Assembly: GCA_027263115.1 (NCBI GenBank)
Contig: GCA_027263115.1_3656.1
Origin: a phage
Length of the DNA stretch: 64,000 nucleotides
Direction: 5' to 3' (one strand)
The notes below the pieces were generated by a model. The model was not told the origin of the DNA. It ran no database searches and saw only the letters and a list, made by a program, of their open reading frames with translations. Shown here one piece after another: positions 7,232 through 49,776 of the stretch; the first letter of the stretch is position 1, and the number at the start of each line of letters is the position of its first letter. A program made the translations under genes and the position numbers.

Positions 7232-8131
7232 ATGGCAAATCTTAACAGTTTTAGTACGCGGTGGAAACAGGACATAACAACCAATCTTTCAGCTGGGGAC
7301 ATCCTTTCTGCAATTTACGAGGCTTTAGATGATAAAGCTACTTCAAAAGCGGTTTGTACCAACCCACTAATTCCTGTAGTGATGAAGGTTATTGAGCGTA
7401 GATTGGTATCTGGGTCTGATAAGTGGACATATTTAGATAATGAAGGACACACCTATTCCAATGGGTACGTCGATATAAAAGTAGAATACGCGGTATCATA
7501 CCGCCGGAGCGGTTCTGTAACTTTCAACTTCTCTGGAGGTTTTCGATCTCTGGCTACCTCACCTTTTGTTTCCTCAGAGGAGAAGTATGAGCTGCCATTT
7601 CTTTGGATGATGGCTAACGCGACAGGAAAAACCCCCGTTAGCATCCGAGTAAAATACAACTACAACGGATCTAGTAAGATCTATGCCGAAAGTGTCTCAG
7701 CAAGTTTTTATTTTGTGATGGGGGATGGAATCCTCAAACATATAAAGATGTGCGATATGCATGATGTTATAAATGAAGTGACTGATAAGAATGTTCTAGT
7801 GAAAGACCTCAACAATTTTTATACACCCGGAGACTATTACGTCAGCCGTCCACTGTGCATCTTTAATGCCGCACACCCTCTAGGTGAGTATTTGATCGCC
7901 AATAGTGATATTGCCAATAACCGCTTCGAGGTAGCAAGAGTTCAGAATGAGGTATTGACATCTTGCAAGAGCGGTGATAAGTTTACCGAAGAAGAGATGG
8001 GTGTTTTAGAAATGATGGGATATAAGTGTAGCCTTTGGGTAGATGAGGTGTTTAATGATTGCATCTATGGACAGGATATTTACCCATTAAAGAAGTATAC
8101 TGATACAAGTTTAATTTATGCGAGGGTTTGA
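7232..8131 (+). CDS. hypothetical protein
   Basis: 299-aa ORF with TAGGAG RBS; first gene of the rightward block. Confidence 0.6.
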   Translation: MANLNSFSTRWKQDITTNLSAGDILSAIYEALDDKATSKAVCTNPLIPVVMKVIERRLVSGSDKWTYLDNEGHTYSNGYVDIKVEYAVSYRRSGSVTFNFSGGFRSLATSPFVSSEEKYELPFLWMMANATGKTPVSIRVKYNYNGSSKIYAESVSASFYFVMGDGILKHIKMCDMHDVINEVTDKNVLVKDLNNFYTPGDYYVSRPLCIFNAAHPLGEYLIANSDIANNRFEVARVQNEVLTSCKSGDKFTEEEMGVLEMMGYKCSLWVDEVFNDCIYGQDIYPLKKYTDTSLIYARV

Positions 8132-25967: not shown

Positions 25968-26285
25968 ATGGTAGTAGAACCAACAAAAACATTTACATCC
26001 ATGACTATCCCTGTTATTATGCAGGTGGAGTGTGTTCAGGTATCTCAAGTGTGGCCAGGCACTAAAATCCCAACAGGGCCTGATTTCTTTCAGGTTGGGA
26101 AAGTGTACAATGTCTGGAAGGCACCAGATTGTCACCCTTTCATTAAAGAGAAGGCACCAAATTGCTACCCTTTCATCAAAGATGACCGTGGAATGCTGTG
26201 GTATCTTGGAAATGATTTGACACTGCACCTTGGGAATGCTATTATTGCAGTATTCAGACTTAACAAGAAGGAGACTGATCAATGA
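25968..26285 (+). CDS. hypothetical protein with internal tandem repeat
   Basis: AAAGAGGAG RBS; KAPDCHPFIKEKAPNCYPFIKDD internal duplication. Confidence 0.5.
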   Translation: MVVEPTKTFTSMTIPVIMQVECVQVSQVWPGTKIPTGPDFFQVGKVYNVWKAPDCHPFIKEKAPNCYPFIKDDRGMLWYLGNDLTLHLGNAIIAVFRLNKKETDQ

Positions 26286-35198: not shown

Positions 35199-35314
35199 GG
35201 CCCCTACTGCCCCGGCTTGTTATTATAGTAACACACAGGACAAAGAAAGCAAGAAGTTTTTGCATAAATTTTTAGACGATAATGATAATCGTTCTCATTT
35301 CATGCAGCGCCCAT

Positions 35315-45400: not shown

Positions 45401-45664
45401 ATGAAACGTCTTGATCAGCTCAAACTAGTTCAGTACATGGCCTACAGAATTCTTGAAGTCCAAAAAGGTAGCAAAAAAGAGGTTTGCGAGAAAGCTTATA
45501 AGATCTTTACCCGCAAAAAAGATGACTGGATGCTACGCCAGACCAAAAAGGCTGACATCTTGGGGTACCTGGAAGAAGAGATCCGCCTTGAAGAGCAAGA
45601 AGAGATCCGCCGCAGTGAAGCAGATTATCAGGCAGCTTGGGAAAACTGGATGAATAACAAATAA
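45401..45664 (+). CDS. hypothetical protein
   Basis: ATG after AAAGAGG; track start 45329 less likely. Confidence 0.5.
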   Translation: MKRLDQLKLVQYMAYRILEVQKGSKKEVCEKAYKIFTRKKDDWMLRQTKKADILGYLEEEIRLEEQEEIRRSEADYQAAWENWMNNK

Positions 45665-45757: not shown

Positions 45758-45806
45758 CTTTTTTAAAGGGAAGTTGTAAGAAAATTAACTAAGAGGTAAA
45801 AACACC

Positions 45807-46226
45807 ATGAACATTAAATCTAATAATCCGGCATATAGCTTTGATAACGCTTTTTGTCACGGTCCGGCGGCGAAAGGATTCGAAATCGATGGTAAACTAA
45901 TTATTGTCAATGTTGACGGGGAAGAGGTTGCAGTATATCCGGTGGCAGACGTAAAAAGCCGTTTACAATGCCGCATTGATGTTACCGCCTATCAGCTTGA
46001 TCCGGTCCGCATAGTTGCCCTGGTCCTGGAAGAAGAAATTAAAGCCATGCACCATAGCAACAGGTTTATTGGTGACGCTCAGGATAATATGAAGGTGTGC
46101 CGCCATAAAGTTAATGAAGTGCTTAAAGAGTACGGCTATAAAGATCTTATGATCAAACGTGATGAAAAATTCCGGTACCGTAACGACCTGGCAAATCGAA
46201 TCTATGAAATATACGAATCATTATAA
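45807..46226 (+). CDS. hypothetical protein
   Basis: 139-aa ORF with AAGAGG RBS; last gene of the rightward block. Confidence 0.55.
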   Translation: MNIKSNNPAYSFDNAFCHGPAAKGFEIDGKLIIVNVDGEEVAVYPVADVKSRLQCRIDVTAYQLDPVRIVALVLEEEIKAMHHSNRFIGDAQDNMKVCRHKVNEVLKEYGYKDLMIKRDEKFRYRNDLANRIYEIYESL

Positions 46227-46244
46227 TTTTTTAACTGAATTATC

Positions 46245-46269
46245 AAGGGGCTTAGGCCCCTTTCTTTTT
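46245..46269 (+). terminator. intrinsic terminator
   Basis: aaggggc-ttag-gcccctt hairpin followed by TCTTTTTG. Confidence 0.7.
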
Positions 46270-46880
46270 GTCTGATCTTCCCCCTACCATAAACGGCCCT
46301 ACCTGGCAAGTGGAATAATTGACGAGCCATCAACCCCACACACTGTACAAATATACATGTAAAATAACTATTGCATAACTTTTCATTGTGTGGTAGCAGG
46401 GCTATTTTTACCCGTTTTTCCTTCCAAAATTGCACGTAATGCAGCTATTGCACAAAATTTAACCTGATGCATATCTTCAGTGTCTTGTCAACAACTAAAA
46501 ATCTTTATAAGTCATGCACTTACATAACCACAAAAGCGTGCTCTACGTGAAAAATCGAGTATAACTATAGCCGCCAGATCTCAGAATTTACGTACGCTCA
46601 CCATTCTATAGTCTGCTAAGTATTTATTCCAACCATAGAATAACGGAATAGTCAATACCTGCATAAAATAATTATTCGTGTAAACTGCATAACATAAATC
46701 AGCTTAGGTGTCAACATTTTTCGTAAACAGTCTGAAATTATCACGATGAGTTATCATAAACAGAGAAATCTTTAGTCGTCTAATGTTTACTGTACGTTAC
46801 TATACTAACTGAAATCATTAGATGACTAATAGAAAGATAAGAAATAATTAACAATACAATTATTTTATCTGTAACAATAA

Positions 46881-47166
46881 GGCAACTATGCAAACGAATG
46901 GCATGGCGCGACGGAGTCGCGACATAATATAAAAGCAGTAACCATCACCCCCGTGATAGTTTGTCTGCAATCTATTAATCAGATCATAGTTGCCTTGTAT
47001 TTAGTTAATCATGACATAACAAGCAAGGCAACTATAGATCTGCTAATAGTTGCCCTGCTTTTATATTATGTCATAGGAACGCCCGAAGGGGTGACCTAGT
47101 CACCTGGCATAGCCAGCGAAAGATTATTAACTTGGTAATAGTTATCATGCAAACGAATGGCATGGC
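46881..47166. repeat. nested inverted-repeat structure flanked by 20-bp direct repeats
   Basis: direct repeat atgcaaacgaatggcatggc at 46888 and 47147; 18-bp inverted repeat gacataatataaaagcag (46921) vs ctgcttttatattatgtc (47055); 12-bp inverted repeat atagttgccttg (46986) vs caaggcaactat (47024). Confidence 0.6.
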
Positions 47167-47177
47167 TTATCATCTCT

Positions 47178-47300
47178 GTGTAAACAGTCAATCATGTAAA
47201 CTATTAGATATGTAAACAGTAAAGGGCGTGAACAGTAAGCGAGGGAATAGTAATAGCGTGAATAGTGACAGCGTAAACAGTGACAGCGTAAACAGTCAGG
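47178..47300. repeat. iteron-like GTAAACAGT repeats
   Basis: at least six copies of GT(A/G)AA(C/T)AGT, including two tandem 15-bp units gacagcgtaaacagt at 47267-47296. Confidence 0.6.
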
Positions 47301-47400
47301 CATGTCAATTATGTCATATTGTGTCACCATTATGTCACTATTGTGTCACCAGTATGCCCAGTATGTCAATTGAGTCTAAAGTGTCAAAGGTGTCAGACAA
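47301..47400. repeat. 10-bp-periodic TGTCA tandem array
   Basis: about ten units (catgtcaatt, atgtcatatt, gtgtcaccat ...) each containing TGTCA or a near variant at helical-turn spacing. Confidence 0.6.
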
Positions 47401-47859
47401 GTTTTTCTCCTCTTTGTCAAGTGCTGCATGAAAAATTTACAAGCTTGTATGGTAGCATTTTTGCGGCCCGTTTACATTCAGTGATGTATGTATAACCCTT
47501 GTTGTGTGGGAGTTTAGACGTCTAGACGGTTGGAAGTCTGCAGGTCAATATCTAATCTATCGGCTGCTAACTATATCCCACACAAATAGTAAGAAATATA
47601 ATTGTTATATGTGTAAACAGTAACTCATGTTATCAATCCCTGTATGGATCGCCAGTGGTGCGCATAATGGGTATTATGTTAAATTGCCCGTAATGATAAC
47701 AGTTCTCACAATGATAGGTATTCTCATTCATCCACACAAAATAGGTTGCAAATGTTGTGCCACTGTGTGAACGGCCTGGCCTATTAATTTCTCTCACTGC
47801 CTCGATATTTGAGGATTGTTATAAGAATGAGAAGTATTCCCATTCCGTCCGCCTGGCAG

Positions 47860-48180
47860 CGCTCCTGTAGGTCCTGCAAGGACTCTAGCTGAAAGCTAGA
47901 CCCTTCGGGCCTCCCTGTAGGTCAGGTCAAAATCGTGGCAGAACTGAGCCTGTTCAGATATTTCTGGCTGACTCTTCAGGTCTGTGTGGGAAAAGCCAAC
48001 CTCTCCGGCGGGGCAGGGGAGGGAGGTAAATTAAAAAATTTACGTGGTGTATGAAGCGCTCTTCAGGTAAGGCAGGTATTATGTGATGAAACCCTCTTCA
48101 GGCAATGATATTTGTGGGTGTGATATTTGCTGGAAAGCCAGATATGACGGGACTCCCGGCGGGGCAGGGGTAGTACAGAC
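47860..48180. repeat. G-rich direct repeats
   Basis: CCGGCGGGGCAGGGG at 48004 and 48155; CCTGTAGGTC at 47864 and 47914; CTCTTCAGG at 47972, 48059, 48094 (also 48508 and 49156). Confidence 0.5.
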
Positions 48181-48866
48181 GGGGGAAATATGGGGATGTA
48201 GTTGGGGAAATTGATCAGGCAGGTAGAGTATGGAATATGTTACAAGTATGTTAAATATGGAGGTTGAATATCTGTAGGATTTGTGTGTAAAATCAAAGAC
48301 TTAAGTGGTGTTGTGGTATTTTCTATAAATAATTCAAGTTTAATAGGTAATATTTGCCTCTATCCACTTTGTGTGGTAAACAGATTCAGATGAGATTAGT
48401 TTACAAGTGTATACATAATATACAAATTAAAGATACAAGAAACCCCCCTCCCCCCTTCGGCTACCATTCACCTTTTCCTCTGACTGGTACTTAAACACTT
48501 ATTCAGACTCTTCAGGTTATCACCCATATATCATATGGCAGTGACTGGTGTCCTCCGGCCCCTCTTTCGTCACCCGTCCGCTTCGCCATGCTAATGCCAT
48601 AGCTAATGGTTCGGTTGTTCACCCTGTTCACTCAGGTGTATCTCTATACCCCTTCAAACCGAAGAGAACAGAAAACCCGAATTACTCGGTAAAAGAAAAG
48701 AGAAGAACTTAATTTTATCAGGATAGGCAAGAATGTCAAGGCATGACTGCTCACTAAACAAGCAAACAGTCATGTGTGGGAGGTAAGTGATTGTGGTGGT
48801 AGGAAATTTAGTTGAAAGATGTGTTATAGGTGCTTCCAGCACTTTAGCCGGGCAGCTAATTGTGTG

Positions 48867-49082
48867 TCAGTCCAGCGGTTCATCCTCTACTTCACTGAAA
48901 TCAATGTTCATGGTCTCTTCCCAACCATCGATCTCAGCACAAGAGTGGAGTTCTTTAGGGTTTACTCCCAAAGCCTCAGCAACAGAGTCTATATTTAACA
49001 CCTCTGGCAGGTATGATTCATCGAATTCAAGGTAAATCAGGCCACGAGTGTTGTCAGCTCCACCAAATATCTCTATCTTCAT
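48867..49082 (-). CDS. small acidic protein
   Basis: 71-aa ORF, last gene of the leftward block. Confidence 0.55.
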   Translation of the reverse strand: MKIEIFGGADNTRGLIYLEFDESYLPEVLNIDSVAEALGVNPKELHSCAEIDGWEETMNIDFSEVEDEPLD

Positions 49083-49203
49083 AAAATCTCCTCTGGGAAT
49101 GAAAGTGTGAACAGGGTTTTATACGTTCTAATGCACAGGAATTATACACGTTTGCCTCTTCAGGCCATGCTTTAGCATGAGGAACCTGTGTGGGCTCGGT
49201 GCT

Positions 49204-49416
49204 TCATAGTCTACCACCTCTGAACTCTTCGTGCTCAGGCATAATAGAGAACCAGATATCTACGATGTCCTCCCACGTCAGGTCATCAGCCTCAGGATCT
49301 GTCTGGGACGAAGATGAAGAGTCCTCAGAATCTAAGTTTTCCTCTTTAACTGGCTCATCCAAGGGACATATGGTCACTCCTTCGGATGTCTCTTCAGATG
49401 CATGTGTGTTGATCAT
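49204..49416 (-). CDS. small acidic Ser-rich protein
   Basis: 70-aa ORF. Confidence 0.5.
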   Translation of the reverse strand: MINTHASEETSEGVTICPLDEPVKEENLDSEDSSSSSQTDPEADDLTWEDIVDIWFSIMPEHEEFRGGRL

Positions 49417-49776
49417 GTTCCACCCGTGAGTATTCCGGCAACAGCCGCTATGGAAGTAATGATCATCAGGATCACCACTAAAACTTCAGACAATGTTCTC
49501 ATTGTGTATTCCATATTCTCCAAACTGTGTGTGGATACTATCACGGGAGCGGTAATGTGTCAACAGCAACGCCGCGAGGGTTTGGTTAAAATCCGAGCGT
49601 ATGGTGATTTGGGTCAAAACGGACGTGCGTTCTCGCTACGCTCGAAAGAGAGACTTGTTTGTAGAAAGCTCTTAAACGCTCTGTAACGAGATTATCTGTC
49701 CAAGGTATGCAATCGTGCACCAGATAAAGAAAAGGACGCCACAGAGCGTCCTAGGTGTCTTAAATTTGATATTTTG

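Follow-up and report, generated by a model that had tools for sequence, protein, structure and literature searches.

Repeat arrays and genome ends in described phages

In phage T7, the signals for packaging are located at the concatemer junction, where the small terminase recognizes them (PMC9860248). Inspection of the T7 genome revealed the terminal repeat at positions 1 to 160 and, after a gap of 14 bp, 12 CCTAAAG units at 175 to 343 with a period of about 13 bp; additional CCTAAAG copies were seen within the terminal repeat and on its other flank. Sub-terminal repeat arrays beside a short direct terminal repeat (DTR) are a known type of feature, T7 being the example, and DTR packaging is acknowledged in the literature as poorly understood. 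Here, we analyze two adjacent arrays of direct repeats, array A and array B, at positions 47180 to 47395 of a phage DNA stretch of 64,000 nucleotides (contig GCA_027263115.1_3656.1; the whole stretch is referred to as the window). They lie next to a DTR and are discussed as candidate packaging signals.

Two other kinds of packaging site are relevant for comparison. In lambda cos, a cut site with dyad symmetry (cosN) is joined to an adjacent one-sided cluster of repeated sites that positions terminase (cosB, R3-R2-R1). Lambda has 12-nt cohesive ends, three 16-bp R sites and an IHF site, and its cosB lies beside the terminase genes. In SPP1 (pacL and pacR) and P1 (pac hexamers), short repeated motifs, some of them helically phased, flank the cleavage region; the DNA of these phages is permuted and terminally redundant, and the downstream cuts are imprecise.

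Two arrays of direct repeats adjoin a terminal repeat

The following features make up the arrays and the DTR.

47180 to 47296, + strand: array A, eight direct units with the core GTRAAYAGT, variable spacers of 6 to 8 bp and a period of 15 to 17 bp (about 1.5 helical turns)
47303 to 47395, + strand: array B, ten direct TGTCA-type units, eight of them exact, spaced 9 to 11 bp; the final unit ends at the DTR boundary
47391 to 47399, no strand: 9-bp palindrome TGTCAGACA, which spans the end-forming cut 47395/47396; the final unit of array B makes up its left half
47396 to 47853, no strand: DTR (458 bp in virion DNA), GACAAGTTTTT...CCGTCCGCC, with boundaries assigned by homology
47613 to 47621, + strand: solitary array-A motif GTAAACAGT within the DTR, with flanks as in the array units

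Array A contains six exact copies of GT(A/G)AA(C/T)AGT (47180, 47212, 47228, 47258, 47273 and 47288) and two degenerate units (GTAAACTAT at 47197 and GGGAATAGT at 47243), with start-to-start spacings of 17, 15, 16, 15, 15, 15 and 15 bp. This agrees with an earlier note on this DNA, which had counted the motif at least six times within about 220 bp, including tandem 15-bp units; the latter are present as two copies of GACAGCGTAAACAGT. In the window, the pattern was found 10 times versus 2.3 times expected, a number that no shuffle attained, and the clustering of six copies inside 117 bp corresponds to a Poisson P of ~2.5e-16. Furthermore, seven of the nine window copies of GTAAACAG are concentrated in 1.7 kb around the arrays, every one of them on the + strand. 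The earlier note had also listed sparse copies elsewhere. Such solitary copies outside array A were located at 46723, 47613 and 48376, but the site listed near 49110 is GTGAACAGG. The copy at 47613 is kept in the DTRs of Gotham and ECP2303.

The information content of the array-A units was about 2 bits in the core versus 0 to 0.8 bit at the flanking spacer positions, an analysis that is partly circular for the core positions, since the units were picked by the motif. The period of 15 to 16 bp would place neighboring sites on opposite faces of the helix, which fits cooperative binding by an oligomer.

In array B, exact TGTCA occurs eight times, always on the + strand (47303, 47312, 47322, 47333, 47344, 47364, 47382 and 47391), and the two double-length gaps are occupied by the degenerate units TGCCC (47355) and AGTCT (47373). 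Thus, the roughly ten consecutive 10-bp units described beforehand are indeed present. The mean period is 9.8 bp, with 10 to 11 bp in the central part, and Tandem Repeats Finder (TRF) gives 11. The 101 bp of array B hold eight TGTCA copies versus at most two in any other 101-bp stretch of the window (P of ~1.6e-12 for the clustering). The longer pattern TRTGTCAY showed no window-wide enrichment, the signal being a local concentration. Both arrays thus far exceed chance expectation. A placement of the motif on one face of the helix, as previously proposed, applies roughly at 9.8 bp per unit, but exact phasing does not, because the drift across the array amounts to ~220 degrees. Successive sites that lie roughly, not exactly, on one face would fit cooperative binding of an oligomer.

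The last base of array B is 47395, and the first base of the DTR is 47396. The palindrome TGTCAGACA at this junction has its sole exact copy in the window here; this uniqueness was dropped as evidence, since a single 9-mer is not significant alone. For comparison, a set of 18 genomes from GenBank phage records was used, while a scan of IMG/VR with the conserved right anchor yielded two loci only. The sequence TGTCA|GACAAGTT at the near cut was invariant in all 18 genomes. On the opposite strand, the far DTR boundary reads GCTGCCA|GGCGG, and TGYCA^GRC was common to both cuts in 16 of the 18 genomes. The similarity between the two DTR edges is suggestive only: a match at fixed register has a P of ~0.004 to 0.01 by our own analytic estimate, which does not come from a tool run.

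Phased direct repeats with conserved cores could also bind another protein of the chromosome end, with a role in end protection, DNA ejection or its stop, nucleoid organization, a ParR/parC-style centromere, or as a sink for a transcription factor or RNA polymerase. An ejection stop has reportedly been proposed for the repeat-rich terminal region of T5, and R1 parC, with its about ten direct repeats of 10 to 11 bp, resembles array B. Moreover, TGTCAA reads TTGACA on the - strand, with promoter-like hits at 47387 and 47369, and the SRL array of T7 likewise contains a leftward E. coli promoter, A0, which is annotated in the T7 record. However, only three of the ten array-B units contain TGTCAA, and the promoter-like hits (14 versus 9.0 +/- 3.0 in shuffles) were not significant. 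In the ten small neighboring open reading frames (ORFs) analyzed with Pfam, no par, regulator or end-binding gene was recognizable. A centromere of the ParR/parC type was rejected, since these ORFs lack partition-gene domains and the genome is that of a strictly lytic phage with no evident need for partition. None of the above roles predicts that the array abuts the cut site exactly, and we regard this group of explanations as unlikely.

Both ends of the DTR are fixed in independent records

The window belongs to a Vequintavirus (an rV5-like E. coli myovirus), and its 3-kb region around the arrays matches 122 GenBank phage records with 90 to 96% identity. The phage bearing the arrays is a 137-kb myovirus. 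The window has a single DTR copy, which is read through as at a concatemer junction. Exact terminal repeats at both record ends were detected in Gotham (459 bp), YN3 (458 bp) and EdH4 (459 bp), which come from three laboratories in Portugal, China and Germany, respectively. In all three, the boundaries are ...TGTCA|GACAAGTTTTT and ...CGTCCGCC|TGGCAGC, corresponding to window positions 47396 to 47853. In addition, Pr121LW and ECP2303, which come from different countries and have opposite orientations, were both opened exactly at TGTCA|GACAAG (window 47395|47396), and the other DTR boundary is the start of seven records, including four bov phages.

The orientation of some database records was possibly copied from earlier entries. 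However, each of the three records with a DTR has a sequence of its own, and the two near-boundary records lie in opposite orientations. Published remarks from two laboratories concur with a DTR in these phages, and the rV5-like DTR is already present in the literature and in GenBank annotation. Unlike in the headful pac phages, the two ends agree to the nucleotide among three independent records. These identical ends argue against a headful pac site with permuted DNA and imprecise ends, although the literature conflicts on this point, and the duplex repeat of 458/459 bp at the ends does not fit a lambda-type cos site.

Two stand-alone records of about 2 kb, OR845197 (2105 bp) and OR844887 (2036 bp), cover nothing but this terminal region, a pattern that would be expected if the DTR with its doubled coverage and the repeat flanks assemble as a separate contig.

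Arrays vary in length but keep their cores

In the 18-genome alignment, the DTR is 92 to 97% identical and gap-free. Outside it, identity is 0.39 to 0.78 with many indels at 47060 to 47395 and 0.45 to 0.74 at 47860 to 47960; the conservation switches fall in the 50-bp bins that hold the two DTR boundaries. The flanks carry the following elements.

46888 to 46907, + strand: 20-bp direct repeat ATGCAAACGAATGGCATGGC, copy 1, exact
46921 to 47072, no strand: nested 150-bp palindrome with outer arms of 18 bp and inner arms of 12 bp, all perfect
47147 to 47166, + strand: 20-bp direct repeat ATGCAAACGAATGGCATGGC, copy 2, which is conserved and anchors the variable array interval on the left
47854 to 48170, + strand: right DTR flank, G-rich and repeat-rich, with a hypervariable segment at 47860 to 47960 that contains CCTGTAGGTC twice

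The array interval, measured from ATGCAAACGAATGGCATGGC copy 2 to the conserved CTCTTTGTCAAGTGCTGCATG just inside the DTR, ranges from 161 to 292 bp across the genomes. Its length varies by gain or loss of units: array A has between about 2 units (navn and FFH2) and about 12 (JES2013), and array B between about 4 and about 11. All 18 genomes carry array A and array B, without any change of orientation, and array B always ends with ...TGTCA|GACAAG. The spacing is kept as well (15 or 16 bp or multiples in array A, and 9 to 11 bp in array B). The cores are conserved among the relatives and the spacers are variable, and therefore the arrays look like protein-binding sites, as judged from the alignments.

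The heavy turnover in copy number and interval length, the reduction of array A to two units in navn and FFH2, the clear recent duplication of some units (the two copies of GACAGCGTAAACAGT), and the hypervariability of both DTR flanks would also be expected of functionless minisatellites, that is, by-products of slippage or recombination at recombinogenic ends that are tolerated in non-coding DNA. This explanation is very doubtful, however. It does not predict that both arrays are kept in one orientation in every genome of the set, that the cores remain conserved beside diverging spacers, or that the terminal unit and the cut site are invariant. Furthermore, the DTR, though otherwise unique, has kept solitary array-A motifs, and the array-A motif survives in L004, a much more distant Vequintavirinae-like genome from IMG/VR whose flanking DNA no longer aligns.

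In L004, the region no longer aligns at the DNA level, but its architecture is retained. It comprises a paired direct repeat, a large palindrome with different arms, GAAAC/TAGT-type units spaced at about 16 bp, and then AAGTATGCCTA units, which stop at the DTR-start-like ACAAAT...CTCTTTTTGTCAA. TATGCCC, a minor variant in the Vequintavirus arrays, is the major unit in L004. Megablast of the L004 non-coding region against GenBank phages gave no match, so its DTR boundaries are assigned by alignment only. The outer palindrome is found at the equivalent place, with different arm sequences, in L004, L006 and the Phapecoctavirus Schickermooser. In the latter, the syntenic position is occupied by a 329-bp DTR, which follows the palindrome and short, weaker repeats. 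As a separate observation, L004 carries three perfect DnaA boxes (TGTGGATAA, complement of TTATCCACA) within 40 bp at 7846 to 7885, inside the inferred DTR equivalent; such a cluster is not present in the window.

A candidate signal for cutting and packaging of concatemers

Judging from these comparisons, the preferred reading, to which we give about even odds, is that the two arrays act in cis, next to the genome terminus, in the cutting and packaging of concatemers and do not represent a classical iteron origin. The packaging role is proposed because array B runs into the cut site and because of the analogy to T7. The earlier note had named initiator-binding iterons and terminase-binding arrays side by side; protein-binding sites are supported by the cores and spacers, and packaging is favored by the abutment to the DTR, but the origin finds little support.

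In the proposed mechanism, one DTR copy (47396 to 47853) would lie in the concatemer between array B and the G-rich repeat region. The arrays would be bound by the terminase small subunit or by an accessory DNA-binding protein, and cooperative binding to the TGTCA units and to the GTRAAYAGT units (1.5 turns apart) would position a nuclease on the last unit. Together with the first DTR bases, this unit forms the palindrome TGTCA|GACA, and the cut would be made between 47395 and 47396. A second cut would be made at 47853|47854, as a matching nick in the opposite strand. Staggered nicks could leave recessed 3'-OH ends and 5' overhangs of 458 nt, and fill-in synthesis would then duplicate the DTR, so that each daughter end would carry a full copy. 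Duplication of the DTR by fill-in is the Watson model for T7. In this scheme, we infer the protein binding, the identity of the protein, the polarity of the nicks, and the direction and role of packaging.

The comparison with T7 SRL and SRR rests on the T7 sequence itself and on general knowledge of this phage. Both phages have a short exact DTR, fixed ends, and a non-coding array of about 10 to 12 direct repeats at most 14 bp from the inner boundary. T7 has additional copies of its heptamer on the other flank and inside the DTR; the correspondence is less clear here, where the other flank is rich in repeats and hypervariable but has different motifs, and array-A motifs occur singly inside the DTR (47613) and beyond it (48376). 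While T7 uses one heptamer on both flanks, the DTR here is bordered by two arrays on one side and by an unrelated G-rich family (CTCTTCAGG among others) on the opposite side. Moreover, here the last unit belongs to the cut-site palindrome, and the structural genes of this myovirus are unrelated to those of T7. With SPP1 and P1, the locus shares short repeated motifs beside a cleavage region, and with lambda cos a dyad-symmetric cut site and a one-sided repeat cluster. In comparison to lambda cos, a 458-bp DTR takes the place of cohesive ends, the repeats comprise 8 + 10 units, and the terminase genes are not beside the arrays.

Several points weigh against a packaging role. No terminase small subunit was identified in this analysis, and the genes for terminase lie away from the arrays. 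For array A, a connection with the cut site is not obvious, and it could have another function. The similarity of the two cut sites is missing in rV5 itself, Mangalyan and Schickermooser, and the arrays of Schickermooser are weak. To our knowledge, the role of the T7 arrays was never settled. The termini of the window are assigned by homology, from boundary sequences identical in relatives. Finally, rV5-like genomes were termed circularly permuted or headful packaged in the original rV5 paper (PMC3606486) and in two further reports (PMC8407724 and PMC13211470). These descriptions derive from PhageTerm or from assembly. Collapsed short DTRs often give rise to permuted or headful calls. The nucleotide-identical ends of independent records appear to be the stronger evidence and to outweigh these reports; the conflict is nonetheless real.

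It is quite unlikely, though conceivable, that the arrays form a two-part, copy-number-tolerant positioning device that is bound by a putative phage protein other than the canonical small terminase. Such a protein might polymerize on the phased TGTCA half-sites until it reaches the terminal palindrome and might then allow staggered TGYCA^GRC nicks at the two edges of the DTR; a coupling to replication from the neighboring palindrome is conceivable. If true, rV5-like phages would be the first case of a large myovirus in which the cis elements that generate a DTR are completely defined.

In a literature search, neither the arrays of rV5-like phages nor their position at the DTR edge were found to have been described. 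Some distinction lies in the presence of two arrays with two periods on one flank, in the terminal unit being half of the cut-site palindrome, and in the extreme copy-number turnover. As DTR packaging is poorly understood, the locus represents a useful experimental handle rather than a surprise. The placement of the arrays provides a concrete candidate packaging signal for the group and a cut site at nucleotide level, TGTCA|GACAAG. The relatives form a natural variant series (array A with 2 to 12 units, array B with about 4 to 11) that lends itself to asking how many repeats are needed. The locus also gives a practical rule by which Vequintavirus records can be oriented and completed and synthetic or rebooted genomes can be designed.

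Comparison with replication origins

Iteron origins (lambda ori, P1 oriR, plasmid RepA and PLE RepA) resemble the locus in having tandem direct repeats in non-coding DNA with an AT-rich segment nearby. Accordingly, one or both arrays, most plausibly array A with its period of 15 to 16 bp, might bind an initiator, and theta or rolling-circle replication might start beside the end of the genome, with a possible coupling to packaging like that proposed for ICP1. In line with this, the direct repeats are surrounded by a large region without ORFs, an AT-rich stretch (GC of 0.33; 46600 to 46900) is located 300 to 500 bp from the arrays, the large palindrome is nearby, and the DTR equivalent of L004 contains the three DnaA boxes described above. 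We nevertheless judge an origin to be improbable. In the window, DnaA boxes occur at chance level, and none is within the arrays. No initiator and no significant Pfam match was found among the ten neighboring small ORFs. The cores of 9 and 5 bp are shorter than the 17 to 22 bp typical of iterons. Furthermore, the flanking gene blocks converge and the cumulative GC skew has a peak here, the reverse of the usual origin polarity. Finally, an origin does not account for arrays locked to the DTR, with array B stopping exactly at its edge.

ICP1 bears on both the origin and the packaging signal. It is a large lytic myovirus with T7-type replisome genes related to those of rV5 (PMC3606486), and it has a putative rolling-circle origin and pac in a 1.3-kb ORF-less space (PMC7145576), so that its terminus, too, lies in a long ORF-free region. 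However, no comparable tandem arrays were found in that space, and there is no nucleotide similarity. The ICP1 'pac' positions given by PhageTerm are 431 and 891, on opposite strands (PMC7145576). The distance between them, 460 bp, matches the length of the Vequintavirus DTR, and they are not flanked by tandem arrays. Thus, instead of a pac site, ICP1 may possess a short DTR.

Genomic setting and neighboring elements

In the rV5 genome paper, a grey 'non-coding' box of about 2.6 kb without ORFs is shown, and the arrays are located there (PMC3606486). This box separates two gene blocks that are transcribed toward each other. The cumulative GC skew has its local maximum at the array locus; changes in skew were linked in the rV5 paper to transcription only (PMC3606486). 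At the left edge of the box, a terminator was detected.

46245 to 46262, + strand: intrinsic terminator, a 7-bp GC-rich stem followed by a T run

The last gene before it (45807 to 46226, in the + strand block) is a homolog of rV5 ORF 164 (rv5_gp159), and the records of Murica and Schickermooser annotate a terminator at the equivalent place.

An Rfam scan of 45800 to 49600 at E <= 1 found nothing, and thus no known RNA family explains the region. Pfam analysis of the ten flanking small ORFs gave no match at curated thresholds, and the relatives annotate the flanking ORFs as hypothetical proteins only. A coding function of the array interval was rejected, since its length differs among the genomes by non-multiples of three and its ORF annotation is patchy and inconsistent.

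The two ATGCAAACGAATGGCATGGC copies are 100% identical, lie 259 bp apart and bracket the large palindrome; both are present in 17 of 18 relatives. The palindrome has its outer arms at 46921 to 46938 and 47055 to 47072 and its inner arms at 46986 to 46997 and 47024 to 47035, and it contains several ATAGTTGCC motifs in both orientations. As single-stranded DNA, it folds with -63.2 kcal/mol (z = -8.6).

The right DTR flank has a GC skew of +0.44 and contains CCGGCGGGGCAGGGG twice (48005 and 48156). The motif CTCTTCAGG occurs six times in the window versus 0.55 expected; five of the six copies are right of the DTR, on the + strand (47972, 48059, 48094, 48508 and 49156), and it is found three times in L004. 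This family may be a phage-specific promoter element that directs transcription toward the DTR. On the - strand, CCTGAAGAG was observed 8 to 10 nt upstream of -10-like hexamers, and the copy at 49156 precedes TGTATAAT.

Both CCGGCGGGGCAGGGG copies include the FtsK-orienting polar sequence (KOPS) consensus GGGNAGGG (48011 to 48023 and 48162 to 48169), which is not significant window-wide (8 versus 4.7 expected). A link of the KOPS-like GGGCAGGG (48011 and 48162) to FtsK was dropped: the label 'DNA translocase FtsK' in navn, which belongs to the homolog of window 45401 to 45661, is without Pfam support.

Inside the DTR, AT-rich dyads of the type AATGATAA...TTCTCATT were noticed near the far end (47690 to 47735 and 47820 to 47850). 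Such dyads are also present in L006 (7451 to 7470 and 7626 to 7652), the Schickermooser DTR and the ORF-less space of ICP1 (930 to 950). They are loosely Fur-box-like, and the navn record annotates one as repeat_region; in the window, the AT-rich DTR repeats gave no match to the Fur consensus at <=3 mismatches. Furthermore, AGACGTCTAGACGG at 47516 to 47529 in the DTR, which is conserved in Gotham apart from one change, looks like a tandem pair of MetJ met boxes (AGACGTCT) and could be due to chance.

Nineteen 'Campylobacter phage' records (MG0656xx; host C. jejuni, some UNVERIFIED) are 93 to 96% identical to E. coli Vequintavirus in this region. On the basis of this identity, they are probably mislabelled or contaminant phages.

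Elsewhere in the window, a near-consensus Fur box, GATAATGATAATCGTTCTC, with two mismatches to GATAATGATAATCATTATC and 0 expected in shuffles, was found at 35261 to 35300. It overlaps a promoter-like TTGCAT-N17-TGATAAT, shows little coding signal and lies upstream of a doubtful 90-aa ORF; this site may be an iron-regulated phage promoter. Finally, a 33-bp tandem repeat with 2.0 copies and 87% identity (TRF score of 104) is located at 26117 to 26182.

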